DNA of 20,000 bases, taken from assembly GCA_046563655.1 (NCBI GenBank), contig CM102289.1, positions 10,167,436-10,187,435 of the forward strand, read 5' to 3'. Position 1 is the first letter of the stretch. Every line of letters starts with the position of its first letter. Shown here piece by piece: positions 2,781 through 20,000 of this stretch. A program made the position numbers and the translations under genes. Source of the DNA: Yuukianura sp. NJ FZ-2021. Lineage: Eukaryota. Below the pieces are notes generated by a model. It saw only the letters and a program-made list of their open reading frames with translations. It searched no databases and had not been told where the DNA came from.

Positions 2781-2945
2781 CCAAAGCAGAATCACTGCTG
2801 AAAGCTGCAAAAGTTAGAGGTGTCTAAAATGTGGAAGACCATAGCGCTTAAGTCACCGTGGCCAAATTCCCGAATTTTTGTATCATTCCCCGCTTAGAAA
2901 AGAATTAAGCTTAATATTCAACATTTATTATCATTTTACAACAAA

Positions 2946-4613
2946 ATGTCAAAGGACCATACCGGAATTCCCATAAGAATGAGATTCTTTGGGCCACATG
3001 GAGGTTTTGCATTGAGCGAGATGGGAGGAAATACACGGAGAGGAGAAAAACTCTTTTCCCATACATTTCTCTCATCTCATCGCCCATCTCTCGCAATGCA
3101 ACTCGCTCTCTGGGCCCAGCCTTATAGAAACCCGGTAAGGCCCTTTGGATCACTGCTCTTTATTTTATAGATAACCATAAAATTTTTATAGCGCTTGTAT
3201 TCATTAACTAGGCAAAACTTATTATAAAAAAAAATAGTTTTAGTATTTGATTTAAGAAGAAAGGAATGGATGCCAAAATGATAGATGCGTGAGTGAGTAG
3301 TAAGAAGTAATGTCAATGTCTTACTCTCAAACCACAAAAGCTGGCTCAATATTCTTTGTCAGGACTATAATATCGTTCAGTCTTTTGTAGGAGCTTATTC
3401 GGCCTGGACCTATCGCAGATGGTGTGAGAGTTGAATACGAGTTAGTAGCAAGTGTTTCAGTAAGTATGCTGTTTGGACCTGCATCCAAGCCAGTTCGCAG
3501 CAAGTATATGGAAATGTATAAATTGAAGTATGGGAAATGTGCAGTCGGACAGTCCAGAAGTTGCTGTTCGATCGAGGACGAGCCTACTTACGCGCAAAAA
3601 GCTGTGTCTTTTGCTTATTTGATCGAAGACGAAACACCCAATGATAAATTTTATAAAGAAGAATTTACAAAGAAGAAAGTTAGAGGTTTGAAACCTAGAA
3701 GCGCTGATGCGGGAAGGAATGCAAGTTCTGGTATTAAATTTTCCACTTTAGTTGGTGGTAAATTCGAGGATTCCAAGAGGTATGATTTGTTTGTTATACG
3801 AACTACTCAAAACTGGGTCCAAGTTAACGAACCTATTTAACGTTAGCATCATTTGTCTTTAGCACAACATCATCTGCTTGTACGGATACGATTGAAAACA
3901 GGGCACTTGACCCAACGGTTACTCCTCCCATCATGGAGTCAGTGGAGACACAAGACGACGACCATAGTCGAACCGAACTGGATGATTTGGAGTAGGATTT
4001 TCATGAAATTATGATAAATTGAGATTGTTCTTTAATTATAATTATTGAGGTTGCGTTTCTAACTACTTGCTTTTATTTATTTTAGAAATTCTAACTGCAC
4101 AGGAGCCTCAAAAAATAATGATGTTAAGAAAGCAGTTAATGTTATTCCTGCTGCTCTGGAAATGAACGATACTACTGTTGCATGCAGCCAAGCATCATTT
4201 GTTACAGTAAATGAAAATTGTCATAGGTTAGTAACCAAAATCTTGTTCCTTCGACTTTAATTTTTTTTAATTTCAATGCACTTTTTGTTTATAAATTTGT
4301 CATTTGTAGGGAGCATACTCCGAGAGGCCTACTCAAAAATATAGATGAAAAACGATTATTTGACTCTATTTATGAGGTGGCTCAAATCAGCGGAATGCGG
4401 TCACTTGGAAGGAATCAATACAAGTGGAAAAGGGTTTGCGAATTAGTTGAATCCTTTAATACTACATCTTTCAAGTCCAAGCAATGGAATTGGGGTGGTG
4501 TAAAAAATTTCTTTTACAATAATCTTATGAAACATGCACGCTACAAGTTATATTATCCTCAAAATTCTGATGCTCGAATTTACTTTGAAACAAAATATAC
4601 ACGGAAAAAGTAG
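2946..4613 (+). CDS. Predicted intact 5-exon gene (~383 aa), unknown protein with a possible C-terminal Myb/SANT-like domain
   Basis: Exons 2946-3134, 3391-3779, 3863-3991, 4086-4226 and 4310-4613 are joined by GT-AG introns with compatible phases (0,2,2,2) and no internal stop. The last exon reads EKRLFDSIYEV…KWKRVCELV…WNWGGVKNFFYNNL. Exon 1 is the least certain. Confidence 0.6.
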
Positions 4614-4637
4614 GAAGCTTCTTATCGTGTTTATGCG

Positions 4638-5560
4638 GGATTCCAAAATGGAAGTCAATTTGGGATTCCAAAATGGAAGTCGAAATGGGACTCCTAAACG
4701 GGTTAGTTTCAACTCAAAATGGATGTCAATATGGGACTCCAAAATGGACGTCCAATTAGACTCCCAAAGAGTTGTTTAAACTCAAAATGGGATTCCAAAG
4801 TGGAACTTAATTTGGGATTCCAAAATGGAAGTCAAAATGGGACTCCTAAAGGGGTTAGTTTCAACTCAAAATGGAAGTCAAAATGGGACTCCAAAATGGA
4901 AGTCAAAATGGGACTCCTAAAGGGGTTAGTTTCAACTCAAAATGGAAGTCAAAATGGGACTCCAAAATGGAAGCGACTCCAAACCCCTCAGTTTTAATTC
5001 AAAATTTAAGTCCATGCAATCGATACACAGTTGGTTTGCACCGACTGTATATGGCAAGAAAGAGCAAGGAAAAATACGTGGCTGGAGTGGGACTCGAACC
5101 CACATCATTACCATTCCGGGGTAACCGCTCTCACCATTGAGCTACCCAGACACAGTACTTTCCTGCTCTGAAATTCTGCCTTTTAACCTGAACAGTCCAA
5201 GTACGACAGCCCTTCATTTCAACTCAAAATGGAACTCCAAATGGACTCCTAAATTCTCTCCTAATTTCAACCCAAAATGAAAGTCAAAATGGGACTTCAA
5301 AATGGACGTCCAAAAGGGACTTCAAAATGGAAGTCGAAAATGGACTCCCAAAGCACTGTCCCAATTTCAACTCCAAATGGAATCCCAAAGTCGACTCCCA
5401 ATGCCCTCTCCTAATTTTACTCCTAAGTGGAAGTAGAAATTGGACTCCGAAAGCACTGTCCCAATTTCAAACAAAATGAAGTCCAAATGGGACTTCAAAA
5501 CGGAAGTCCAAATGGGACTCCAAACGCCTCAGTTTCAACTCAAAATGGAAGTCCAAATAG
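4638..5560. repeat. Complex minisatellite of 12-13 bp units (AAAATGGAAGTC / AAAATGGGACTCC) with a TTTCAACTC-containing spacer, interrupted at ~5012-5212
   Basis: Many direct copies are visible; ORFs here are repetitive (QNGSQNGTPK). Confidence 0.92.
5079..5151 (-). mobile_element. tRNA-derived element (SINE head or tRNA pseudogene) inserted in the minisatellite
   Basis: Minus strand shows A box TAGCTCAATGG, D stem GCTC/GAGC, stem TTACC/GGTAA with loop CCGGAAT (no U33), T arm GTGGG-TTCGAGT-CCCAC, a mismatched acceptor stem and a following T run. Confidence 0.75.
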
Positions 5561-5830
5561 GTGAAAATAAAGTTTTTGGAAAAAGTTTATCTGTTAAGGT
5601 GATTACATACTGTGAGAATAAATTTTTTGGAAAAAAGTTTTTCTTTTAAGGTAATTATACATACTGTAACGTAAGAATTAAATTTTTGAAAAAGTTTCTC
5701 TCTTAAGGTGATTACATACTCTGAGAATTATATTTTTGAAAAAGATTTCTTTTAAGGTGATTACATACTATGAGAATAAAATTTTTGAAAATTTTTCTTT
5801 CTTAAGGTGACTACATTCTATGAGTATTAA
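5558..5830. repeat. ~50-bp degenerate tandem repeat (TAAGGTGATTACATACTNTGAGAATAAATTTTTGAAAAA…), about 5.5 copies
   Basis: TAAGGTGATTACATAC-type core at about 5596, 5647, 5704, 5753 and 5803. Confidence 0.9.
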
Positions 5831-5869
5831 ACCTACGTTGCACCTATGTTTTAAACTTATGTCTACGTT

Positions 5870-6213
5870 TCACCACGAAGGTCGATGGACGTGCAGATTT
5901 CGACTCAGAATACTGCGTACATCTTGAGTGAATGTCGAGGCGTCTAATACTTTGAGGATGAGGAGGGCGGTAGCATCTGTGAACCAGGATTTGATCAGCA
6001 TTGCATTGGCTACAGGCACAGACCACTAGTTAGTTAAATAGTCATTTGGACTGAATCAGCTCTTGAGGTTAAGTTAGCCGGGTAAGAGCGATAAGCTTCT
6101 GGTGAGTTGTCCAGAATAAATATGGAGTTGAGACCATTGGAAATGATGGACAGATCCTTCGAGAAGGAACCCAAGTGAAGAGTGCAGTGTTGTCGCCAGT
6201 ATCTCGTCTCCAG
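5870..6213 (-). pseudogene. CTDNEP1: CTD nuclear envelope phosphatase 1 (Dullard) 3' fragment
   Basis: 6213-6078 reads [45 protein letters not shown]. 6009-5870 reads [45 protein letters not shown]. Both match the CTDNEP1 C-terminus (RYYRQHCT…DNSPGAYRSHP…DVRSVLSRNLH). Donor is CT instead of GT at 6077; small deletions. Not in the ORF track. Confidence 0.92.
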
Positions 6214-8631
6214 GCTGGAGAATCTCCAGATTTAGGTTTCGAATCGGTTTCAGTGTCATTGTCTTTGCTTCCTTCCTCTTTTTTACTTTCTTCACCGCCA
6301 GCATTCTCAGACTGTTCGCTGTTCTCTCCGTTTGTGCTGGAATATCATCTCCACTCCCTGTAAAATGAAATGTTTCCATCACAATCTAATTCAAATGCTA
6401 AATCCCGCTTATTTCAAAATTAACCTGAAAATAACTTGCTAAAAGCTGATCCCAATTTAGACAGGGTATCCTCTTCTGGAGAAGCAACTGTTTCCACGGT
6501 TGCATTCTTCTGAAAAACAGATTCTACTAGTAGAGTGAGACTGATGATTCCATTTTCGTCCAAATTGTAATGGGCTTTGACGCCTTTCACTTCAATACCA
6601 TCGCCAATATTTTTAACACCTTTCAGATTCACTTTGGTAATGTTAGGAGTCTCGGTGGCACTAAAAACAACAAAAATGGAAATCAGCTGATACTTAAATT
6701 AACAAATTAAAAGCAAATCTTACTTGGCTTATGGCTTGGTGTGCTGGAACTTGCAACTCGCCGTAGCTGACGTAGAAACTGAAATCGTCTACGCTTATTG
6801 AATGTTCAGATCTTCTGTGGATAAGGATTCATGTAAGAAAAGAAAGTTCGGCGAACAATCTTGACTGGCCGGGCGGCTCCATCTTCTCCCTCCAGTTCCC
6901 GCTCAAAATCGACCTGCAAAAGAAACATTTCATTATTTGATGACTAATTTGAGCGATTTGTTTTAAAAACTTACCAAAATGGGAAAGAGAACAGCATTTT
7001 TGGTCAAAAACTTTTTCACTTTGAATCCAGAGCTGAGATCAGTTGCTTTGTAAACGGCGCCCATCACTGCAGCCTCGTCCGTGTTCTGACTCTTTCCTAA
7101 TTCTCGTTTCAAAACTTCAGTCAGTTTTTCCTGGACTTTTGGAATACGCGTTCCAGCTCCAACTAAAATGACTTGGTCAATGAGGTCCCTTGTAATTCCA
7201 GCGGCTGTTAACGCTTGTTCAACTGGATAGTTGACACGTTCGACCAGATCTTCACATAAACTCTCAAACTCGGCACGGGAAACGGAAGTTTTGAAGTCTT
7301 GTTCATCCAAAAGACCTTCAACCTGTAATCAAAAAGTCAGCACATTTCAAACATCGTTTTCAAAATTTAGTTCTTTCGAAGTGTTTTCATATTTTCATGG
7401 TTGAATCATTCAAATGGTGACTTCAGCCTGCATGTAACATGAACCGAAGCGCATTCTTTTACATTTGAAGTTTGAACGGAATAACAAGGAAAAAGTTGCG
7501 GTTCGAAAATACTTCAAAAGTAGTAAAAAAAATGAAGTAGAAACGTAGAAAAAATTTTTTACCTGAGCGTAGTGATCAGCGTTAGCACTCAAAACGTTTT
7601 TGAGTCCGCCGGTTTCCTTGAACAATTTGGCCAGGGTACGGCGGCTAGTAAAAACATTAGTTTCGGTCTTCTTCAGGTCATTGAAAGCCTTGCCCAGAAA
7701 ATCCCTCAGCCGAAGTTGCATTTCCAGACCACCCAGTGTATGATCGTATCTGAAACCAAGTGAATCAGCTGATCAACTTATTTCTGAAAACATGATGTTC
7801 GCAGTGTAATTTCAAATTCTAGACTTACCCAACACCAAGAATTGTCAACTGTGGATTAGTTTCAACTACTCCCTTCTCCTTAGTTTTCGTCATCTGATAG
7901 CTGATTACAGTAGCAACTGTAGTGGATGCTCCCATGTCATACAAGAGAAGGTGCTGAGGAGTCTCGTTGAAATCTTTTCAACAAAAAATACAATAGTTCA
8001 AAGCACCTAACAACATTCAAGTGTATTAAAAACGCCATTCCGACGAATAAAATTATCAAAATTCAAATATTTTGTGAGAGATTGATTACTGACCGTGGTT
8101 GCGTTTATGAACTGAAGAACATTGATATCCGCCAATTCGGATGCGTGCAGAACTGCTTGTCTGTCGGCTTGGTTGAAATAAGGTGGAACGGTGATGAGTG
8201 CTTCCATGACCGGTTGACTAGAAAACTCCTGAGCATAGTCACGCGCTTGGCTTAGAATCATTCCAAGGAGTTCCTCAGATGAATAAAAAGGTTCACTACA
8301 AACAGATAAATCAGTAATTAATAATTAATCATCAATCAGCTGTTATCGATTTAGGTTACGGCACCTGTCATGTTGAAAAAGAACTGTCCCACAGTCAGGA
8401 TCAGGAACTAAGTTGTAGTAAGGAAATCTCTTTTGATAAAGCTCTACAATTGGATTATCAATCTTCTTTACCAAGAGTTCCAAGAAGTAAAGGTAAGCAT
8501 TGGATGGGAAACGAACTGCTACGTTCAGTGCATCTTCTCCAATGAGCCGCTCATTGTCACGGAACGATACGGCAACTGGTGTTTTCCGCTTTGACTTGGG
8601 CACTCCAGGCTATAATAAAACGTATTAAGAG
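6214..8631 (-). pseudogene. HYOU1: Hypoxia up-regulated 1 / GRP170 (ER Hsp70-family) internal fragment, 8 exons
   Basis: Exons 8609-8365, 8295-8094, 8006-7829, 7749-7563, 7322-6975, 6913-6724, 6660-6425 and 6357-~6222. Motifs [63 protein letters not shown]. In-frame TGA at 7980-7978 and 6808-6806, frameshifts, and a deletion after PGVP. No signal-peptide exon and no C-terminus. Confidence 0.95.
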
Positions 8632-8694
8632 TCCAGCATCCTCCTCCCCTTGTCCACTTCATCCGCAACTCCTGTTTTCAAATTCACAACTTAA
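8632..8694 (-). pseudogene. CTDNEP1: CTDNEP1/Dullard short middle fragment (intron 3' end plus exon start GVADEVDKGRRML)
   Basis: 8638-8694 is 56/57 identical to 12507-12563. The reading frame continues at 6213 (…[13 protein letters not shown]). Confidence 0.88.
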
Positions 8695-8728
8695 ATGGGA
8701 TTTGGAAACTTCAATTAAGATCTCTTAC

Positions 8729-9928
8729 CCGATTTTTGGATTGTGTTTCCTGGGATTCGTTACTGTAGTGCATTTGGGAAAGAGTTTCTTCACATCCTCT
8801 CTAGTCACATCGGCATGAATGTTCGTCACGTAGAGACAAAATGGGTCAATGTGCTCAGGGTTATTCGTCACACGCGTGTCACTGTCCAGTTTCTCCTCCA
8901 CCTTAGAATAAAAACAAAGCTAGATAACTATCAACCCAAGCAAGAGAATAAAGATACTTGGAGGTTTTAGAATGAACTGGAAATGTTTAAACTTACGGTG
9001 ATATTTGAACCAGCGAATTTGACTTTCTTCAAGGCTTCCACTCCCTTCTTGACGTCTGCGTCGTGCTTGAAGATGACGAGAAACTGTCTGGGTTCGACAG
9101 ATTTGGCAAAGACTGCAATTTCGATGCCCCCATGCCACGCCTTCACAATTTGCTCTGTGATGGGAGGGTCATGCACTTTGATCAAGTACACACGACCACC
9201 ATGACCCAGCTCCTGCTCCGCCTTCATTCCTCGCTCGCAGGCTCCAGCCGGTCTTGGATTAGAACCCAATTTCTAAACACAGTCACAAGTTTACCAATTG
9301 GGAAGAAAGGTAGTGGAAAAGCGTGGATTACTTACGCTAGTCAAGCGTTGGAATCGGCCCTTCGTCTGGGCTTTCTTGTGAATGTTCTTACTCTGCGCAG
9401 AAACTTTATTCAATCCTCCCTTGGCTTGATCTTTCTTCTGGAACTTGTGCTTTGGCTGTTGCGTGGCTGGAGCTTTCGGTGGCGAAGTGCCTTTCGTCAC
9501 TTCCACCTTCTTTGCACCCACTGGTGGAGGAGCCACTTTCTTGTTCAAATTCTGAGGTTGAGTCTTCTGATTGTCATGCTTCTGTTCCTGTTTCGGAGGA
9601 TCTCCACCTACAGCCAAAAAACAGTTTTTAGAAAAGTTGATTCCAGATATCTGAAAGTAATTAACTGGTTTGGTTACCTTTGCATTGTGGCTGCTTGGTA
9701 CTTTGTTGACTACCGAAGGACTTGTTTCCTCCGAATTTATTGGGACGCTGACCTTGAAGTCCTCCAGGGGATTTACCTTGTTGGTTTTTGGGAAATTTGG
9801 ATGGGTATTGTTTCCCCCAACGGACTGCAAACACAAAACACAATCTTCAAGTCATAATTAAGTCAAGACTTAAGTAAGGAAGGAAAAATAGGAAAACTTA
9901 CCTTTCGTTTCTCGGCTGCCATGATCAT
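8729..9928 (-). pseudogene. 5' part of a two-RRM RNA-binding protein gene (painting-of-fourth/nucleolin-like), 5 exons
   Basis: Exons 9922-9902 (MAAEKRK), ~9824-9678, 9607-9336, 9272-8996 and 8901-8729. K/Q/P/G-rich N-terminus, a degenerate RRM (RVYLIKV…FLVIFKH…LKKVKFAGSNITV) and the start of a second RRM (IDPFCLYVTNIHADVTREDVKKLFP). One frameshift near 9805; truncated inside RRM2. Confidence 0.75.
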
Positions 9929-9960
9929 GTTCCCTTCAACTATTCTGTACTTCCTACCAG

Positions 9961-10122
9961 GAAACAACTTGTGGATTAAGCAATGAACAGACGGTGACCT
10001 TTAAGTTGGACGACGTCGAGGTCAACGTAATGACAACTGGATGAGCGACTACTGCTGACAAGGAGGAATTCAAAGTGAATCTGAGAACAGGGACTTCCAC
10101 TTCACAGAGGAGTAACAAGTAA
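9961..10122 (+). pseudogene. Possible last-exon fragment of an unidentified gene
   Basis: Pyrimidine tract plus CAG at 9958-9960, then ETTCGLSNEQTVTFKLDDVEVNVMTTG*ATTADKEEFKVNLRTGTSTSQRSNK* with one internal TGA. Confidence 0.3.
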
Positions 10123-10414
10123 CTCCACTGGTCTTATTTATAACTTTTTCTTTTCTGAGTGCGGACCACGCGTGTAACAAAAATTCCGCCATAAAGTCAC
10201 TATCGGAGGCTAATACTCGGAAAAGAGTAGAAACTGCAGATAGAGTTATCTGATTCTTAGACACTCCTATGTTTTGTACTTGACACAAAGTGCGGGAACC
10301 TAATTTAAATAGTTTAAGTTGTTAGATTTAACAAATCTAATACAATTCGATTACAAGAAAACAATTACTAAATTAATTAGTAATGAAGAATAATTATCTG
10401 TTGCTTTGCTTCAG

Positions 10415-11093
10415 TTTGAATAACAACTTGTGCAACTGTTGTTATTCACTTGATCTGGACCTGGAGGATTAGTGGAGGAAGACTCGTCTCCAATCAACTA
10501 AACGGTAACAATGTAACTTAAAAGGGAATCAGTTTTTACATGTGTTTTTATATCCTTAGGTCAGTTGGTTGTTAGCGATTAGTGACTCGGACGACACTGA
10601 CTTGGAGAACTTACGACAACTGGCCCTCAGCAGTCTCCTCAAGAACAACTTCCCACTTCAGACGAGTGAGTGCTGTGAGTGTTTCCCTGTCCACTTAGTA
10701 CTTTTCAATCATCATAGTGTTTCGTTTGTTTTGTATTAGGTCTTTTACCGTTCAACCTCCAACCTCATCTCAATTGAACCGGTGGAGAACTCCAAAAGAA
10801 GAATGAGGATGATGGACCCACAGTAGAGGAAGATGACAACGGACAGAGTGACGACGACAGGAGCAGTGGAAGCGAATATGCGGTTGTCGGTAATTGTCAC
10901 AACCAATGAAGCTAAAGGAACTGGACGTTGTTATGAATTTGTCGCTGGCTGTTGTGTTTTTCTAGAAGAGGGACTTTCTGTTTCATGTGGTGATGTGGAC
11001 CAAGTGATTGAGGAAGTTGTTGTGTCGGAGGGTGAGAACATGAACATGACAAGTCCAGAGGAAGAAGAGGCTGAAGATGCCGCCGTCAGTTAG
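10415..11093 (+). pseudogene. 5' fragment of an unidentified acidic protein gene (multi-exon)
   Basis: GT-AG introns at about 10505-10559, 10666-10739 and 10890-10965. Peptides SDSDDTDLENLRQLALSSL (preceded by ATT at 10578, a plausibly mutated ATG), STSNLISIEPVEN, EDDGPTVEEDDNGQSDDD and DQVIEEVVVSEGE; frameshifted. Confidence 0.5.
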
Positions 11094-11149
11094 CCATGCT
11101 TCTTTCGACGAGATTCACTTAGGAGTGCATTAGGAGTAACCTAATGTCA

Positions 11150-11550
11150 GACCGAGACGATTTGCTCAGTCGTCGATTCACGCCACATGACAACACGAGT
11201 ATCAACATTGACTATTCCATCCAGCATCATAGTTCTCTCCAGGTTAGCTCATAACATCATAAACTACAAATCCCGCAATGCCAAATAAAATGTCACTTTA
11301 CCAGAACGCCCACCGTGGAATCGATGACATGCTGTCGCAGGGATACCAAATACTTGGGAATTTGCGTGATCAGGAGTCCATCCTGAAGCAAACGAAGACA
11401 AGGATTCTAAACTTTACAAACACACTGGGACTATCTAACACCGTGATGCAGTTCATAGAACGCCGTGCATACCAAGACAAGTTTGTTCTCTACGGTGAGA
11501 TGCTTCTCACACTAACCATCATCTTTTTCATTTACATGTACTTTCTCTAG
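11150..11550 (+). pseudogene. GOSR2: Golgi SNARE membrin/GS27 3' half
   Basis: Exons 11150-11242 (RDDLLSRRFTPHDNTSINIDYSIQHHSSLQ) and 11305-11550 (NAHRGIDDML…LGLSNTVMQFIERRAYQDK plus TM helix). N-terminal half is absent; Glu where the family has GGM at the TM start. Confidence 0.92.
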
Positions 11551-11758
11551 ACCTTTCTCCCAACTTCATCTGTGATTCGTCTCCCTAACTTCTAAGCTTA
11601 TTAAATCATATCGTCCGTTTTCCTAAAATACGAGAGGATCTACCGGAGAGAAGAAGTGATTAGAATTAGTTGGATATTTCGTTTTAATCAAAGATACCTC
11701 GCCATGCCATCCACTGAAGTTTAATGGAAACTAGTGTTTAATTAGTAATTGAAGTACA

Positions 11759-12478
11759 CTATGGTCCAGCGGGGGCATGAGGGGCAGAGGTTCTTATGAT
11801 GTCAGAGTCACCAGGATCCGTGATGGAGAGGGTGCAGACTCGGAAGTACTTTCCACAGGCAGTCCCTAGCTCAATGTTGTTTCCAGTGTAGTGGTGGACT
11901 CCAGTCTTGGCCAACATTCCGTAGTACTCAATCTCTCACTTTCTAAAGACAGAAGAAGAGAAACACGACAGTCAAGCGCTGCCTCCCAAGATCCATCAGC
12001 AGCACACCATTTGTAAATTGGGAGAGAGGAGTGACTTACCTGAGTGGCGGAGTGTTGTTGGCGATGATGATGAGTTTGACCTTGTCATGTCTCAGTCACT
12101 TGATGGCCTGTTTGTAGCCTAGCACAACTTTTCCTGACTTCATCACAAGGGCCAGTCGGGAGTTGATGCTCTCCGCACTCTTTCTCTAAAAAACAATCAA
12201 AACATGGTAAATGCACAACTGGAGGGAAGCAGCATGTGACATGGTCTCTTTACCTGTTTTTTTTTGAAGCAACCATTTTGAAGTTTCTGGATTTGATGAA
12301 AGAAAGGACTTGTTAAGGGACCTGGACAGCAATAGGATACGAATGAAACCATTTGAATGGTTCATGAGTCGGTAGTTACTCGTAAGAATGAATTAGTGCT
12401 TACCTAGTAAATCGTTGACCACGACCAGTAGACCAGTAACACCGAAACACGTTTCTTCCTTGTTACTCGCAAAGAACG
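11759..12478 (-). pseudogene. RPL30: 60S ribosomal protein L30 (eL30), full-length unprocessed pseudogene
   Basis: ATG at 12276; coding exons 12276-12254, 12185-12040 and 11942-11759: MVASKK…SINSRLALVMKSGK…[55 protein letters not shown]. Frameshift in an A9 run; TGA at 12098-12096 and 11938-11936. Upstream non-coding exon (~12478-12404) starts in a pyrimidine tract. Not in the ORF track. Confidence 0.96.
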
Positions 12479-12486
12479 AAATGCAC

Positions 12487-12801
12487 AAATGATGGACAGA
12501 GACCGTATCCTCCTCCCCTTGTCCACTTCATCCGAAACTCCTGTTTTCAAATTCACAACTTAATTAACTTTATCCTACTTACAAATTCCACTCTAAATCC
12601 GACTTTAATTTTGAATAAACATACCTGCACCGTAGATGTCCATTGAGGCAGTGAACACGACCAACTCGAACCATTTGGAAACCTACGCAAAGGAATTCAT
12701 TTGTTATCATGCATGTTGTCTTTATACATTAAAACTTACGACATCCAGGAAGTAGTCGACGTGTGGTCGTTTGTGGACGAAAAACCGAACTGGATGTCGC
12801 T
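12487..12801 (-). pseudogene. CTDNEP1: CTDNEP1/Dullard middle fragment, 3 exons
   Basis: 12801-12740 [20 protein letters not shown]; 12682-12625 VSKWFELVVFTASMDIYGA; 12540-12507 GVSDEVDKGRRI; then 14 nt (12487-12500) identical to 6141-6154. The N-terminal DxDxT catalytic motif is not present. Confidence 0.94.
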
Positions 12802-14790
12802 GAGGCTTTGATGTTGAGGATCCACTGCTTCCAGCATCATCCCGATTCTTAAAAATACAAGATTAGCAAAGTAGTATATTCAGTTAGTTTAGTTGTTGGA
12901 AAGTAAAGTTACTTGAAGGGATTTGGACCAGGAAAGGCTGGTTGGCGGAAGAATCTGGATGGAGCTGACTTGGAGTTTGTTTCCTGCAAATACTTGGGCC
13001 AGTTGAATTCAATTAGTGGAGCACATCGCTTCGGTTCGGCCGAAACTTCCCCACTCGACTCATGTCCAGTTTTCTCTTTGTCTGAATCCGTCACTTCATC
13101 TGGTCCAGGCGACTTGGGATCACTCAGAGAAGAGTCAGATCCCAGGTGTCTCTAGCTTAACGCATGCTTACGTCTTTCCAACTAAATCCAAAATAGGCTC
13201 AAGATTGAGCACTGGCAAAGTCAATGACTTCTTCCCATCTCCATCCGTAGACTTAGGAACAGTTTCTGTTTCTGGATCTTGTTTGAGTCTGAGGAGCCTT
13301 CTGGGTTTGGAAGATTCAGGAGAAGAAACATTGGTGGAACTTTGTCGTTTTGATGTTTTTGTGATTGTGATTCCCTTGGGAATTTTAAACTTGGTAGCTG
13401 GAGACTCCTCTTCAGGCTCAGCGGTTTCTTCCTCCTCAATTATAAATACGAGTTCCAGACATTACCTTTGAATTCCATCGTGATGAGAATGGATGCCAGT
13501 GTTCCACAAGTGACACATCCAGTGACGTCCACACTCTCCTCCTTCTTTGACGTAACGCATGGTTCGGAACTTTGTTCCTTTTCACTCTCCCGGGCGTTCG
13601 GTTGTTCCGAAGAATCGTGAGATGGAATGTCGGGCTTTGGATTGGCGGATTCCTTAGTGGGAAGTGTTGGTTTCGGTAGGATGCTGGTTGAGACTGGTTT
13701 GATTTTGCTGTACTCGAACAGCTGACAGCCTGTGTTTGCTCCTTGATAAAGGCGACAATGGAACTCTCACTCATACTTGACTGCTCTGATGCATTGAAAT
13801 CAACCACCTCCATCATTCCAGAAGTTTCATCCACACAAATCTAAAACAGTGGAAATGGGGAAAAGTCAATTGACTTGGAACAATGTGCTTGGATTTTTGG
13901 TTGCCTTACCTTTCCTTGCAGCCCAGGGATTTTGAAAAGAAGTGGAAACTGGAAACGAAATCTTCTTTATCTGTACAAGTACAAAAAAATTAAAAGTTGT
14001 TGATGGAAATACTGTTTCTTCTTCATTGAACTGACCGTAGGTGAAGCAAAGTTGAATCCAATATCCTGTTAAAAGTATGAAGAAGAGTGTCTAAGTGGCT
14101 CACACTTATTTCTTCGCAGTATTTCCACATCGCACCATGACTCGGATGCTCTGCTCCACTCCATTTCCGTCTATCCCGTGGAATGCTGACTGGATCTGGT
14201 CATAGAGGCTGCTTTTGACTGAACTAAGTCAATCTCCATTTTCACTGGAAGAAAGGACGATACGTGTGGAAGATCTCCAATCAGACGTTGGTCCTTGGAG
14301 TCTTCAGCATCCCCACCTTCAAACTGTGAGGCACCTTCTTCCTCAGCATGTGCTTGTGATTCCACACTGAAACTAAGTCCGTCCTGCTCCTCATCAACAA
14401 ATCCCCACGTCCTGTTCCCGCTTCCAGTCTCTTCAGTTTTAATTAGATCGCTGAAATCATCCACAACGGTGATATAAGTACGTTGGGCCTTTGCTTGCTG
14501 TGTCGAAGGAGTGACGGTGTCAATTTGTGAAACAACGGATGGTGCCTGGAGAAAAATATGAGAGTCCAAACCATTGAAGTTGATAAAAGGACCGAACTAT
14601 AATTTGGACTAACAATTGTAGTAACTGTTGAGGCTGGGACGAATGTGAGAATGGAAGAGCTGTCCACAACAGAGAGAGGGACAGGATGTTGTAGTACTCC
14701 TCCAACACGGTTGGGCAAGGTCGCTGACGCCAGCCCCCCTCCCTGTGAAGGGAATCTTGACCCCTCATCGTCGTCGTTTTTTTTGCATGA
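12802..14790 (-). pseudogene. L(3)mbt / L3MBTL-like MBT-repeat gene, 5' part truncated in the first MBT repeat
   Basis: FNWPKYLQETNSKSAPSRFF…[20 protein letters not shown] is the start of an MBT repeat. Upstream GCKGK|ICVDETSGMMEVV and CVTCG resemble L3MBTL N-terminal motifs. Several frameshifts; donors at ~13465 and ~13171 are followed by only 20-25 nt of intron, implying internal deletions. Assignment of the most upstream exons is less certain. Confidence 0.78.
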
Positions 14791-14812
14791 CTTTAATTGC
14801 ATTGTTCCTTAC

Positions 14813-14881
14813 CTTAACCGATTTTTGATAAATAGTTGATACCAGCTTCAAATTCGTAGTTGTGCTGGTCGTAGATTAACC
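14813..14881 (-). pseudogene. Isolated exon-like fragment (LIYDQHNYEFEAGINYLSKIG*), source unknown
   Basis: Flanked by a TTTTAAG acceptor and a GTAAGG donor; phase is incompatible with the upstream exon ending at 15181. Confidence 0.3.
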
Positions 14882-14899
14882 TTAAAACTGGGTTAGCGC

Positions 14900-15170
14900 A
14901 AGAAATTTGGACATTTTAGGGATTAAAAGTCAATTTGAGCCCGGTTCGGAGACGAAAACACCCCGAAAACGATTTGTTGCGCCGAAGGCGCAAAAAATTT
15001 TGAGATTTTGGGGAAGGAAAGTCAATTTGAGCACGATAAGGCGGTCAGGAAACGTCGTAATGAGTATCTAGGCTCCAAGATTTTTTTAAATTCTTGCTCA
15101 AAAATCCATACCCCTCCTGGCGGCCTTCGGCCGCCAGACCCCTCTTTCCCCGGCTACCCCCTCTGCTTGC
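14900..15170. mobile_element. Intronic MITE-like remnant with GAA-triloop hairpins
   Basis: TTGCGCC-GAA-GGCGCAA (14977-14993), CTGGCGGCC-TTC-GGCCGCCAG (15117-15137), and direct repeat AAAGTCAATTTGAGC at 14926 and 15018. Boundaries are approximate. Confidence 0.5.
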
Positions 15171-15180
15171 CCATCCGTAC

Positions 15181-16125
15181 CTCCAACAGTACTCACAGTG
15201 GCCATTCCATGCTCATCCTGAACACTGAACACGTACTGGGTGTTGGGATCCTGTTGCTGGGAAATCGGAAGGATTTGTCCGTAGTTTCCTCCACTTGCCA
15301 GGTTGAGGATTGGTTGGTCGGTGAATGAGGTGATTGAGGAATCAGAGGGAAGAGCAATCAGTTCGTAGACGTCGTTCCCAGCCAGAACCTCCCCCACTGG
15401 AAACTACGGAAAAGAAATCAACAATGAATTCTCAATTAGGCTGAAATTTTTAATTTTGATGAGAAGAGACTAACATGAATTTGGGCTGGCGCAGTGCGCG
15501 CATTGGTCGTGTCAATAAGCGGCATGAAATTGAGAGGTCCATGGTTTGGAGTAGAGGTCGGCAGAAGAGCAGAGTGTCTCCGTTGTTTTGAATGTTGTAC
15601 AATTGGTTATCCGAGCCCACAACTACCGTTCTTGATGCAGCGTCCAAGTTGCCAGGCAACCCCTCCATGTAAATGTTGTTCATTTGCTGGAAATTGGGAA
15701 CGGAGGAGAGTGTTGCGTAGTTGACTTTAGCGGAACCCACCACTGTTTCGTTGATGGGTGGAGGATTAGGTTGCAGTTGTGTGTTGAGGTGAATCTGACC
15801 AGCGTCCACTGTCACTTGATCTTGGTGCGGATGATGGAAGACAACGTAGTGGCCATGTCCATCAGATGTAACATTCGTCACTCCACTCCCCTCACCGGGA
15901 ACACCGCTCATAGCCACAAAAACTGCAAAGCACCATTAGTAAACAAACATTAAATTAATTACTAACATGGAAGCACTTTGACTATCCAGTTAGATACACA
16001 CAATGGGTTTACCTGAAGCGATGTAGTTGTGATGCTTTAAGATTAACCGGAACTCAATTAATCTTAGTACGACCCTTAATTAAACAACTTTAGATTCTCG
16101 TTTTTTGTTCTTGTGGCTGTAGAAT
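15181..16125 (-). pseudogene. 5' fragment of an unidentified gene (non-coding exon plus two coding exons, Q/N/V-rich low-complexity N-terminus)
   Basis: Non-coding exon ~16125-16013; exon 15922-15475 with ATG at 15911 (MSGVPGEGSG…); exon 15403-15181 (FPVGEVLAGNDVYELIAL…). A frameshift near 15565 is needed to keep phase. Confidence 0.6.
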
Positions 16126-16156
16126 GAAGTGATTTTGGCTTGACTTCCATTTTATA
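16122..16156 (-). promoter_or_regulatory. Pol II core promoter: TATAAAA box plus Inr TCATTC
   Basis: Minus-strand TATAAAA starts at 16156, 31 nt upstream of the A (16125) of TCATTC, which matches the arthropod Inr TCAKTY. A splice donor follows at 16012. Confidence 0.65.
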
Positions 16157-16329
16157 TGAGAGCGAGAGGAGTTGGATTTACCCCTTGGAGGAGTTGGATC
16201 TTACTCCTCTGAAGTATTTATGTGAATCTCAATTCCTGGTGCGGACCGACGAGTGGACAAAACTTCCTCCACAACTTCTTTTTTTGTGAATGCGGAGGGC
16301 TAATCCTCTGAAATGTGTCATAATAGTCA

Positions 16330-17135
16330 TCGCGAGTACTTGCGATATCTACGATTGCTGATTACTCTTTAATTAAAGCATATAGAACTCCGGGATTGTG
16401 TTATCTGACATCAAACTTGTAATCGATTAGTTCTTTGTGATATAACGTATTCCGGAGTTTTAAAGTGCGTAATTAGCCTAATTTCTACTATTGTACCAAA
16501 ACCATGGTCGCAGCTACTTGCGATAACTACGATTGCTGATTTCACCTTAAGTAATCGATTTAAAATCCTGAAATGTGTTATGTCAGCTTGTAATCGATTA
16601 GTTCTTTGCCATGCAACGTATTCCAGAGTTTTAAAGTGCTTAATTAGCTTTAATTTTCACTTTTGTGCCAAACTCACGATCGCATGTACCTACGATGTCT
16701 GCGATTGGAGATTACTCGTAGAGTAATCGATTTAAAATCCTGAAATGTGTTAAATCGACTTGTAATTGATTAGTTCTTTCCCATATAACGTATTCCGGAG
16801 TTTTAAAGTGCTTAATTAGCTTCATTTTTCACTATTGGACCAAAATCTTGATCGCCAGTACTTGCGATTTCTACGATTGCTGATTACGGCTAAAGTAATC
16901 GATTTAAAATCCTGAATTGTGCTATATCAGCTTGTAATCGATTAGTTCTTTGCCACATGACGTATTCCAGAATTTTAATTTGCATAATTAACCTAATTAG
17001 CGCCTATTGTCCTCAAATTCAGTTTTTGCTTAATTACTCAGTAATTATGCAAATTAAAATTCTGGAATACGTTATCTCGACTTGCAATTGATTAGTTCTG
17101 TGCCGTATAACGTATTCCAGAGTTTTAAAATGACA
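16330..17135. repeat. ~173-bp diverged tandem repeat, 4 copies plus a partial copy
   Basis: Units start with TCGC…TACTTGCGAT…TACGATTGCTGATT at about 16330, 16507, 16680 and 16852; shared core TTGTAATCGATTAGTTCTTT…AACGTATTCCRGAGTTTTAAA. Confidence 0.92.
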
Positions 17136-18114: not shown

Positions 18115-19468
18115 AAGGTTTTGCATATATTCGTTCGTTGGATCGGCGAGGTCGATCTCTAGGGTTTTGCATATATTCGTTCGTTGGATCGGCGAGGTCG
18201 ATCTCTAGGGTTTTGCATATATTCGTTCGTTGGATCGGCGAGGTCGATCTCTAGGGTTTTGCATATATTCGTTCGTTGGATCGGCGAGGTCGATCTCTAG
18301 GGTTTTGCATATATTCGTTCGTTGGATCGGCGAGGTCGATCTCTAGGGTTTTGCATATATTCGTTCGTTGGATCGGCGAGGTCGATCTCTAGGGTTTTGC
18401 ATATATTCGTTCGTTGGATCGGCGAGGTCGATCTCTAGGGTTTTGCATATATTCGTTCGTTGGATCGGCGAGGTCGATCTCTAGGGTTTTGCATATATTC
18501 GTTCGTTGGATCGGCGAGGTCGATCTCTAGGGTTTTGCATATATTCGTTCGTTGGATCGGCGAGGTCGATCTCTAGGGTTTTGCATATATTCGTTCGTTG
18601 GATCGGCGAGGTCGATCTCTAGGGTTTTGCATATATTCGTTCGTTGGATCGGCGAGGTCGATCTCTAGGGTTTTGCATATATTCGTTCGTTGGATCGGCG
18701 AGGTCGATCTCTAGGGTTTTGCATATATTCGTTCGTTGGATCGGCGAGGTCGATCTCTAGGGTTTTGCATATATTCGTTCGTTGGATCGGCGAGGTCGAT
18801 CTCTAGGGTTTTGCATATATTCGTTCGTTGGATCGGCGAGGTCGATCTCTAGGGTTTTGCATATATTCGTTCGTTGGATCGGCGAGGTCGATCTCTAGGG
18901 TTTTGCATATATTCGTTCGTTGGATCGGCGAGGTCGATCTCTAGGGTTTTGCATATATTCGTTCGTTGGATCGGCGAGGTCGATCTCTAGGGTTTTGCAT
19001 ATATTCGTTCGTTGGATCGGCGAGGTCGATCTCTAGGGTTTTGCATATATTCGTTCGTTGGATCGGCGAGGTCGATCTCTAGGGTTTTGCATATATTCGT
19101 TCGTTGGATCGGCGAGGTCGATCTCTAGGGTTTTGCATATATTCGTTCGTTGGATCGGCGAGGTCGATCTCTAGGGTTTTGCATATATTCGTTCGTTGGA
19201 TCGGCGAGGTCGATCTCTAGGGTTTTGCATATATTCGTTCGTTGGATCGGCGAGGTCGATCTCTAGGGTTTTGCATATATTCGTTCGTTGGATCGGCGAG
19301 GTCGATCTCTAGGGTTTTGCATATATTCGTTCGTTGGATCGGCGAGGTCGATCTCTAGGGTTTTGCATATATTCGTTCGTTGGATCGGCGAGGTCGATCT
19401 CTAGGGTTTTGAAGATATTGTGTTTCGTTTCGTTGGGATCGGCGAGGTCGATCTCTAGGGTTTTGCAT
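18115..19468. repeat. 46-bp telomere-adjacent tandem repeat (AGGGTTTTGCATATATTCGTTCGTTGGATCGGCGAGGTCGATCTCT), 28 copies plus a degenerate copy
   Basis: Exact 46-nt period from 18115 to 19402 with no spacers; degenerate last copy at 19403-19456. Confidence 0.98.
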
Positions 19469-19469
19469 A

Positions 19470-19772
19470 GTATTCGTTGAAGTTGAAGAAGAGTCGAAGT
19501 TAGGTATTCTAGGAGGTTTGTTGTTGAAGAAGAAGGTTGAAGAAGAAGAAGAAGGGAAGAAGAAGGTGTTGAAGAAGTTAGGTTGAAGGTTAGGTTGAAG
19601 GAGAAGAAGTTGAAGAAGAAGAAGGTTAGAAGTTAGAAGAAGTGAAGAAGAGCAGGTTGTGTTAAGAAGAAGTTGTAGCTGAAGAAGTTAGAGTTGAAGA
19701 AGAAGGTTAAGAAGAAGGTTGAAGGTTAGAGTTGAAGAAGAGGTTAGGGAAGGTTAGGTTGAAGAATTAGGT

Positions 19773-19815: not shown

Positions 19816-19846
<31 letters not shown>

Positions 19847-20000
19847 TAGGTTAGGAAGGTTAGGTTAGGTTAGAAGAAGAAGTTAGGTTAGGTTAAGTTA
19901 GAAGAAGGTTAGGTTGTGTTAGGTTGAAGGTTAGGTTAGAAGGTAGGTTAGGTTAGGTTAGAAGAAGAAGAAGAAGAAGTTAGGTTAGGTTAGAGGTGCT
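19470..20000 (+). repeat. Telomeric tract: TTAGG repeats interspersed with (GAA)n
   Basis: TTAGG density rises towards the end (19846-19995), G-rich strand points to the end, and there is a pure (GAA)n at ~19776-19844. TTAGG is the ancestral arthropod telomere repeat. Confidence 0.8.

Follow-up and report, generated by a model that had tools for sequence, protein, structure and literature searches.

How does a 2.4-kb piece of one gene come to lie within a single exon of another? The question is raised by a 20,000-nucleotide stretch of Yuukianura sp. NJ FZ-2021 (assembly GCA_046563655.1, contig CM102289.1, positions 10,167,436 to 10,187,435; hereafter, the window), which as a whole is eukaryotic and arthropod-like and whose minus strand, from about 5.9 to 13.6 kb, carries short exons with introns of 60-220 bp between them. 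Here an internal piece of HYOU1, the gene of a GRP170-type Hsp70 protein, stands inside an exon of Dullard (CTDNEP1), as a preliminary description of the window had proposed, correctly to the base. The locus is a real, old and non-functional patchwork of gene fragments, and the origin that we hold, with some reserve, to be probable is a break at a single fragile spot in the Dullard pseudogene exon that was mended by ectopic, synthesis-dependent repair, with kilobase stretches copied from other loci and the ends closed through microhomology and short templated fillers. The features are collected in Table 1. To compare the window with reads, we used read-derived k-mer contigs of four of the five public runs that contain the stretch, none of the five being an RNA run, at an 80% likeness setting; X1, X2 and X4 represent one sample (organism A), and X3 comes from another study and organism label (B).

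The inserted piece is composed of 22 nt of one intron, eight exons and seven complete introns, about 2.4 kb in all. Its first 22 nt (8631-8610) end in a good AG acceptor (...TTATTATAG), the first exon starts at 8609, and the coding sequence runs on the minus strand to 6223, with TCTGGAGA as its final letters (6230-6223); AG...GT boundaries are kept in all eight exons and the seven complete introns are GT..AG. Its membership of the HYOU1 family is indicated by matches of three of its open reading frames (ORFs) or exons to the Pfam HSP70 family (E 6.4e-26, 2.7e-15 and 1e-05) and by a protein homologue search, in which 438 of 1161 candidates reached E<=1e-10 and the best named homologues were insect 'hypoxia up-regulated protein 1' sequences (top identity 75% among the 120 matches listed). 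In tblastn all seven HYOU1 homologues used were collinear on the insert, the full-length P0001 spanning residues 58-594 and P0007 extending to residue 639 at 6225; the insert is an internal fragment covering residues 58 to about 640 of about 960-1000. It is disabled by an in-frame TGA near 8000 and a frameshift at 6791/6792, its first exon has lost a short stretch in frame, and it holds no complete open HYOU1 coding sequence. Retroposition is excluded, in agreement with the preliminary description: seven complete introns and part of an eighth are present, there is no poly(A) or A-run, and the piece stops in mid-coding sequence at 6223. Because introns are kept, poly(A) is absent and the fragment is internal, the insert is a DNA-level copy and not a retrocopy.

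The host carries a NIF-type phosphatase domain. Its 3' part, formed by an exon (6213-6078), a degenerate intron and a last exon (6009-5873) that runs to the natural stop, matches Pfam NIF (E 1.5e-07, above the cut-off) and, in the PDB, human CTDNEP1 (8ujl, E 7.8e-16) ahead of SCP1 (1.7e-07) and TIM50 (1.2e-03); seven Dullard representatives place the last two exons in tblastn at 6213-6073 and 6010-5879. A HMMER search of 1.84 billion representatives with the Dullard piece gave 345 matches at E<=0.001, and a word-index protein search with the same piece gave six candidates and no match. Decay is evident throughout: the intron donor at 6077 is CT instead of GT, the last exon has in-frame deletions of 2 aa and 1 aa, and the host shows neither an intact catalytic DxDx(T/V) motif nor an uninterrupted gene. 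In the upstream exon remnant the homologues' catalytic DLDET aligns, weakly, to HLWNT (13551-13465); six of the seven representatives match this remnant weakly (E 0.07-0.16), with seven consecutive identical residues and with strand and order as expected. The Dullard pieces follow each other in gene order on one strand (13551, 12801-12505, 8694-8632 and 6213-5873) and are the backbone of the patchwork. On its sequence, the host has decayed to a pseudogene copy with no fewer than three interruptions.

At the 5' junction of the insert the Dullard exon (...GTGGACAAGGGGAGGAGGATGCTGGA, minus strand) stops at 8632, ...GGAGGATG being followed by CTGGA at 8636-8632, and it picks up again at 6213 with CTGGAGACG (CTGGAGACGAGATACTGG from 6213 onward), where CTGGA occupies 6213-6209. 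Removal of 8631-6214 restores the Dullard reading, as had been claimed, and the 3' part aligns to human CTDNEP1 and to the Dullard representatives. That this junction pair is an assembly artefact, a chimeric join of reads from separate HYOU1 and Dullard loci, is hardly credible. The region is repeat-rich and its family multi-copy, a setting where assemblers err, and the organism A runs may be the window's own assembly data; yet contigs built from reads bridge both junctions at neighbour-like depth, X1 record 3 (8394-8674, depth 1741) that of Dullard copy 1 with HYOU1 and X4 record 22 (6184-6555, depth 169) that of HYOU1 with the Dullard 3' part (per-contig depths, here and below, being hints and unsuited as copy numbers). 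Moreover, X3, with its other study and organism label, shows continuous high depth over 6576-9963 and a contig across a second scar at 12487-12505.

Where does HYOU1 end, and what lies between it and Dullard? Over the last three HYOU1 exons, 38 of 421 aligned letters differ between the window and a HYOU1 contig from the reads (X4 record 23, depth 110), which is thus about 91% alike there; the introns of this contig are wholly different from those of the window, and it represents a paralogue or the functional gene. It parts from the window exactly at 6223, and its next 30 letters are unlike the window and keep the HYOU1 frame open (...KPKSG EDKVDGAKNES). Because the contig departs there, TTCTCCAGC is not HYOU1 sequence in that copy, and because Dullard resumes at 6213, at most 9 nt are of doubtful origin; these nine letters are probably a filler foreign to HYOU1. 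The preliminary description had asked whether the patch is native to HYOU1, and the answer is in its favour, with unrelated coding sequence in place of TTCTCCAGC after 6223. In its first 8 nt the filler is the reverse complement of CTGGAGAA in the HYOU1 paralogue, and its last 8 nt, TCTCCAGC at 6221-6214, are the reverse complement of Dullard's GCTGGAGA, so that the inverted match to the target noted earlier was confirmed. As had also been noted, HYOU1 ends in CTGGAGA, seen at 6223 in the paralogue contig, where A follows; the Dullard target reads CTGGAGA between G and CG, and the two partners have these 7 nt in common. CTGGAGA is thereby present three times within 23 nt at the 3' junction, in the order forward-reverse-forward, with single-base spacers. 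Of 200,000 random 9-mers, 1.0% matched the 40-nt flanks in inverted orientation over 7 nt or more and 0.17% over 8 nt or more, corresponding to a chance of about 0.002 for the inverted match of 8 of the filler's 9 nt to either parent. To judge from these letters, the filler is an inverted copy of the CTGGAGA motif common to both partners.

A further short repeat touches the same junction: AGCCTGGAG occurs on the minus strand only at 8611-8603, where the HYOU1 exons begin, and at 6216-6208, at the 3' junction, and two such matches were reached in one of 200 shuffles. The pair could hint at a trace of end-to-end contact, as in a circle or tandem intermediate; this is placed below the inverted-copy reading, as it involves only 3 nt beyond the shared CTGGAG. 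In addition, X3 (depth 8) and X4 (depth 76) contigs show a further HYOU1-like copy at 7139-7646, about 90-93% alike, which lacks 506 nt internally and has four filler letters between its sides; it is another scarred family member.

If the HYOU1 piece was inserted, the uninterrupted exon might be found elsewhere, and the preliminary description had advised a search for such an empty site. Contigs of all four runs join the Dullard 3' part directly to the 5' part of the exon. The joint 6212 to 12505 occurs in X2, X3 and X4; X1 has the joints 6213 to 12508, with two letters between, and 6214 to 12507; and X4 has in addition 6213 to 8638, with nine intervening letters. On the minus strand the 6212 to 12505 joint is ...GGATAC joined to TGGAGACG and the 6214 to 12507 joint is ...GGAT joined to CCTGGAGACG; provided that nothing lies between, both translate in frame to ...RRILETRYW, their Ile codons being synonymous. 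The X4 contig with the 6213 to 8638 joint carries an uninterrupted ...GGATGCTGGAGACG..., in which 8 nt (AGGAGGAT) are duplicated in tandem ahead of GCTGGAGACG, the target that had been reconstructed beforehand and that exists here exactly, and it bears C at 8666, the marker base of the nearer 5' copy (copy 1). These joints have short sides (26-47 letters) and come from k-mer contigs, which makes them good but not final evidence.

Besides the HYOU1 insertion, the same exon is broken a second time. Its 5' half is doubled, 8694-8638 against 12563-12507 being identical at 56 of 57 positions, and copy 1 as a whole (8694-8632) duplicates 12563-12505 with two differences in 59 aligned positions. The far copy (copy 2), to which the upstream Dullard exons 12801-12743 and 12682-12623 are attached, begins in mid-exon at 12801, continues with an exon VSKWFELVVFTASMDIYGA and an exon start GVSDEVDKGRRI, and breaks after ...GGATAC at 12505. 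There the scar consists of four letters and a 14-mer (12500-12487) equal to 6154-6141, whose normal place is 58 nt downstream in the Dullard exon; the 14-mer occurs exactly twice in the window and never in 200 shuffles, and local alignment finds it isolated. The X3 contig that spans this scar (record 21, 12003-12552) places it in organism B as well. Only 4 nt in Dullard coordinates separate the break at 12505 from that at 8632, and both copies break in the same few bases (...GGAT, A or G, C, then TGGA and GACG, the breaks falling on either side of TGGA), the far copy with a scar of its own; the spot (...GGGGAGGAGGAT(A/G)C TGGAG) is purine-rich and hypervariable among family members. A third discontinuity lies at the other end of copy 2: the Dullard exon expected as PDFILKVTIE-RHPV starts only at RHPV (12801), with a piece of an MBT gene in place of the rest, and a contig loose end behind 12801 translates PDFILKVTIE ahead of RHPV, the true Dullard gene continuing there and the window not. 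The MBT piece is cut inside an exon at 12802, its translated parent carrying on from ...HQSL into FCVANIVDVQ, and the loose ends at 12801/12802 recover both parents in four of four runs, with an overlap of 0 nt and no filler.

The origin that we favour starts from what the sequences show: the anatomy of the locus, a DNA-level origin of the insert, the presence elsewhere of an uninterrupted exon, the microhomology and the filler in inverted orientation. To these it would add a break, a succession of steps, the enzymes at work and a choice between one event and several. A double-strand break would have occurred in the Dullard pseudogene exon, and a broken end would have primed synthesis at the HYOU1 locus, within an intron, with about 2.4 kb copied from genomic DNA. 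Copying would have been released at CTGGAGA, a short inverted copy of the motif would have been made by foldback or strand switch, and the new end would have been joined to the other broken end via CTGGAGA. The locus would thus consist of templated insertions chained together at a single fragile site, made in one multi-switch event or in a few successive ones, and the patchwork would afterwards have decayed and been copied many times. Two signatures that accompany such repair are present: microhomology, at the 3' junction only (...CTGGAGA of the HYOU1 paralogue at 6223 and GCTGGAGACG in the Dullard target), and templated filler, TTCTCCAGC being an inverted copy of 8 of its 9 nt from either parent and the second scar holding a 14-nt direct copy. 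Single snap-back, in-trans priming and hairpin-opening (palindromic or P-nucleotide) schemes were tried by hand, and none of them exactly yields the series forward-T-reverse-C-forward from the parental letters; the filler step is termed 'foldback or strand switch' because no simple scheme fits exactly. The claim of the preliminary description that host gene DNA was pasted into a break by repair synthesis stands as to the DNA template and the microhomology join, but the host is a pseudogene broken at least three times, in a multi-gene, multi-copy patchwork, and not a gene hit once.

Several observations, together with the failure of the hand-tried schemes, weigh against this origin. The HYOU1 contig used is a paralogue about 9% diverged and with unalignable introns, and the 9 nt may be native to the real donor (TCTGGAGATTCTCCAGC); at the 5' junction (8632/8631) the 22 'intron' nt may include filler. 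Every joint of the uninterrupted exon relies on contig sides of 26-47 letters at the 80% likeness setting. There are at least four sequence variants of this exon and two 5' copies (two differences in 59), and recombination within the family could have shuffled the halves, so the flanks of the HYOU1 piece may stem from different paralogues, which the preliminary description had named as a second refuting condition. Junction 12801/12802, finally, has neither microhomology nor filler and is more like blunt end joining, and because it looks blunt the signature is not found at every junction.

A rival that we regard as improbable is breakage and fusion among members of an already amplified repeat family, similar to the segmental-duplication patchworks of subtelomeres or heterochromatin; the two flanks of HYOU1 would come from different members, joined by separate end-joining or unequal-exchange events, and collinearity would give the illusion of an 'insertion'. 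The family has many copies and is heterogeneous: the X1 contigs on the region comprise 112 at 99% likeness or more, 107 at 95-99%, 59 at 90-95% and 32 below 90%, and contigs of every likeness class map to it in each run, which points to a family of diverged copies. The variants of the uninterrupted exon, the unequal X3 depths across the parts (8 to 1048 per contig), the blunt junction, the satellites and TTAGG arrays beside the block and the two slightly different Dullard 5' halves would all suit such a history. It fits poorly with the gene order of the Dullard pieces on one strand and with flanks of HYOU1 that overlap by exactly the exon's own CTGGA, and an uninterrupted exon of the copy-1 type (C at 8666), with GGATGCTGGAGACG, exists. 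Besides, two independent fusions 0-5 nt apart in one exon are unlikely without a hotspot, and a hotspot is the best explanation itself.

Another alternative, which we consider less likely still, is transposon-mediated capture of gene fragments (Helitron-like or Pack-type transduplication), in which CTGGA would be a target-site duplication. Intron-bearing fragments of unrelated genes stand side by side, mostly in one orientation, in a block that is multi-copy in two organisms, and a 5-nt direct repeat surrounds the HYOU1 piece. This repeat, reported beforehand as a 5-nt duplication, holds against the nearer 5' copy but not against the copy at 12505, where the overlap is 0-1 nt. The ends of the HYOU1 piece are host coding sequence and filler, not element termini, and Dullard is an interrupted backbone rather than one captured block. 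Among 168 ORFs (28 and a further 140) there is no transposase, Rep/helicase or reverse-transcriptase family, the 140 further short ORFs giving against Pfam a single weak NIF match only. No inverted repeat pair was found in 2800-17000, in a search that was not aimed at Helitron ends, and the outer boundaries may lie beyond the 20-kb window.

Within the repair origin, the departures 4 nt apart and a return 57 nt upstream fit one multi-switch event, and successive events at a hotspot fit equally; an intermediate of the kind expected from a stepwise history, with the nucleolin-like gene and the 63-nt Dullard piece joined directly to the Dullard 3' part, is hinted at by the X4 contig. A stronger version, which we rate as doubtful, holds that one catastrophic germline repair event at the purine-rich fragile site of Dullard, with at least five template switches, gave a product from which a new repeat family arose, among it a 3.4-kb tandem unit (6623-10041) that would consist purely of housekeeping-gene fragments and would have attained high copy number in a related organism. 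Synthesis would have passed from the local 14-nt copy to the eL30/V-SNARE locus, then to the nucleolin-like gene, to Dullard 57 nt upstream, to HYOU1 and to the foldback. The spacing of departures and return is compatible with it, yet one junction is blunt and X3 depths are very unequal between the parts. If it were true, the locus would be a dated, base-resolved satellite born from a templated-insertion chain.

Table 1. Gene pieces, scars and X3 contig depths in the window, in minus-strand order; depths are to be read as hints.
Feature	Position	Strand	Basis or value
Upstream Dullard exon remnant (...IHSHHDGIQR)	13465-13551	-	tblastn, 7 Dullard representatives
MBT-repeat gene fragment, two exons and intron	12802-13151	-	PDB L3MBTL3 E 5.5e-07, SCML2 E 2.8e-06
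Dullard 'copy 2' fragment	12505-12801	-	tblastn E 1e-15 to 1e-17; repeat family D10
Second break scar: GGTC (4 nt) and 14-nt Dullard exon copy	12487-12504	-	exact-match count, local alignment
Ribosomal protein eL30 gene copy with introns	11762-12276	-	PDB eL30
V-SNARE gene, last exon	11263-11547	+	Pfam V-SNARE_C E 8.2e-16, above cut-off
Nucleolin-like RRM gene, front part	8695-9928	-	P0271, tblastn, PDB, Pfam
Dullard 'copy 1': last 22 nt of intron and 41 nt of exon, ending ...GGATGCTGGA	8632-8694	-	repeat D10 (57 nt, 98%), alignment, tblastn
Internal HYOU1 (GRP170-type Hsp70) pseudogene piece	6223-8631	-	Pfam, homologue search, tblastn, splice sites read
Probable filler, 9 nt TTCTCCAGC	6214-6222	-	read from window, compared with parental letters from contigs
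Dullard 3' part, last two exons	5870-6213	-	Pfam NIF, PDB 8ujl, tblastn
X3 per-contig depth	6955-7833 and 8808-10041		1037-1048
X3 per-contig depth	12003-12552		432
X3 per-contig depth, uninterrupted-exon joint			235
X3 per-contig depth	11187-11918		62
X3 per-contig depth, HYOU1 paralogue contigs			8-10

The nucleolin-like piece covers residues 1-294 of 435, from a start codon at 9928 to 8728, with its N-terminal part out of frame, and is cut 33 nt into an intron at 8695; the junction 8694/8695 lies inside two introns. Its identity is taken from P0271, because the RRM ORF's own PDB matches are only at chance level: P0271 is 81% identical to the nucleolin-like query ORF, gives four collinear pieces in tblastn and matches PDB nucleolin (E 1e-09), and the ORF itself reaches E 0.0075 with Pfam RRM_1, below the cut-off. 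A chimeric protein was considered and rejected, since the nucleolin-like exon (ending ...GG) spliced to the Dullard exon stops after four codons. The eL30 copy, whose ATG exon was read by eye at 12276-12254, matches PDB eL30 at residues 59-108 (E 1.5e-27) and 8-36 (E 2.4e-09) and is dead, with an in-frame TGA at 12098-12096. The V-SNARE exon, which has no match in the PDB, lies on the opposite strand, convergent with eL30, and the two were probably copied as one genomic piece. Pieces from at least five loci (the MBT gene, eL30/V-SNARE, the nucleolin-like gene, HYOU1 and Dullard) are thus joined at breakpoints that ignore exon-intron structure, and the patchwork is without apparent function, every fragment being disabled as far as its letters tell.

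Two side observations concern this part of the block. A 723-nt X3 contig over 11187-11918 (V-SNARE exon and last eL30 exon) has no other letters and nine gap letters, a match much closer than the 2-5% differences elsewhere and at the lowest depth of the block (62, a hint only). Loose ends on both sides at 10339-10342 (X1 and X3) mark an extra breakpoint, where the V-SNARE/eL30 piece meets the sequence that lies upstream of the nucleolin-like gene.

In organism B part of the patchwork appears to have become an abundant 3419-bp unit (6623-10041), head to tail or circular: an X3 contig links 10041 back to 6623 (depth 1048, side 233), and X3 bins over 6576-9963 stand at about 1040-1300, compared with some 60 at 10.2-11.9 kb. 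The unit is made up of the front of the nucleolin-like gene, the 63 nt of Dullard and the greater part of the HYOU1 insert, and it would include the 8632 junction, to judge from the continuous depth (1040-1262) over 6576-9963 with no high-depth joint there. The junctions are old because they are common to two organism labels, in agreement with the decay of every fragment.

The block is flanked by repeats. The window starts with a 48-bp satellite (1-2780; 59 copies, 91% matches) whose two strands differ extremely in composition (GC skew about -0.58, AT skew about +0.57) and whose unit holds CCTAA-like motifs. It is followed by a tRNA-like element at 5078-5151 on the minus strand (Rfam tRNA, 51.3 bits; called Ser(GGA) by ARAGORN), the only element found by the Rfam and ARAGORN scans, which at 74 nt is short for a serine tRNA and may be a tRNA gene or the head of a short interspersed nuclear element, and which is flanked by 25/50/71-bp tandem repeats (4637-5490 and 5562-5837). 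On the other side, long open frames at 13171-15935 on the minus strand, such as 15453-15935 (161 aa) and 14174-14596 (141 aa), match no Pfam family and may belong to the MBT-type gene as exons of low complexity or be additional fragments; a 172-bp tandem repeat (16329-16990; 3.8 copies, about 80% identity) forms the right border of the gene-fragment block. Beyond it lie a 46-bp satellite (18117-19478; 29 copies, 98% matches) and, 3' of this, AAG/GAAG-rich low-complexity DNA and degenerate TTAGG arrays (including 19846-19989) near the end of the window. (TTAGG)2 occurs five times in the window against 0.03 expected, and the 46-bp satellite and the arrays suggest a subtelomeric or interstitial-telomeric setting.

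The locus is a well-resolved case of the known templated-insertion and segmental-duplication patchworks, with no new mechanism or function. It is probably a clean natural specimen of break repair moving kilobase pieces of ordinary genes into others in an arthropod-type germline, in which both partners and the uninterrupted target can be recovered from reads and the scars are seen at the level of the base (7-nt microhomology, 9-nt inverted filler, 14-nt local copy), and it shows such a patchwork as raw material of a tandem repeat. It is also a warning for annotation, as the matches to HYOU1, Dullard, eL30, nucleolin-like, V-SNARE and MBT genes in this region are dead fragments and not genes.

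Gene-fragment patchworks occur in subtelomeres, in B and sex-limited chromosomes and in Helitron or Pack-MULE captures. The locus shares with them dead, intron-bearing housekeeping fragments side by side, satellite or telomere-type flanks and partly tandem amplification, and differs in that no element termini were found in it and that one pseudogene serves as backbone. Like processed pseudogenes, it contains a housekeeping gene as a dead ectopic copy, flanked by a short duplication; unlike them, it keeps introns, lacks poly(A) and has an internal fragment that starts in an intron. To our knowledge, yeast has no polymerase theta. In the available part of one yeast study, breaks nevertheless acquire foldback inversions of 5-34 bp and distant templated insertions via polymerase delta with non-homologous or alternative end joining (PMC11724301). 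Because theta-free routes give the same scars in that account, polymerase theta cannot be singled out here; to name it, as the preliminary description did, was too narrow and goes beyond the evidence, as sequence alone cannot name a polymerase.

Scars of this type have been described for synthesis-dependent microhomology-mediated end joining (PMC2943611, PMC5728401 and PMC9303309, as far as these sources were available), and polymerase theta-dependent alternative end joining in flies gives complex insertions and long microhomologies at breaks, according to the accessible part of PMC2895639. The 7-nt microhomology junction, the inverted filler from beside the break and the second scar with a 14-nt copy from 58 nt away resemble these products; their insertions, in the parts consulted, are tens of bases long, and the 2.4 kb and more from other loci found here would need long, processive ectopic synthesis. 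The yeast foldback system, as presented in the same part of PMC11724301, is alike in its very short inverted duplications and distant-locus insertions, including multi-piece ones made by microhomology-mediated template switching, and unlike in being somatic and experimental, with the insert sizes, germline fixation, decay and amplification seen here lying outside that work. With fork stalling and template switching, microhomology-mediated break-induced replication and chromoanasynthesis (PMC9199198 in part, otherwise general background) the locus shares the stitching of several templates, a return slightly upstream (the 59-63-nt duplication) and mixed orientation (the V-SNARE exon); it differs from them, as outlined there, in having microhomology at one junction only, one blunt junction and a single event that is a proposal.

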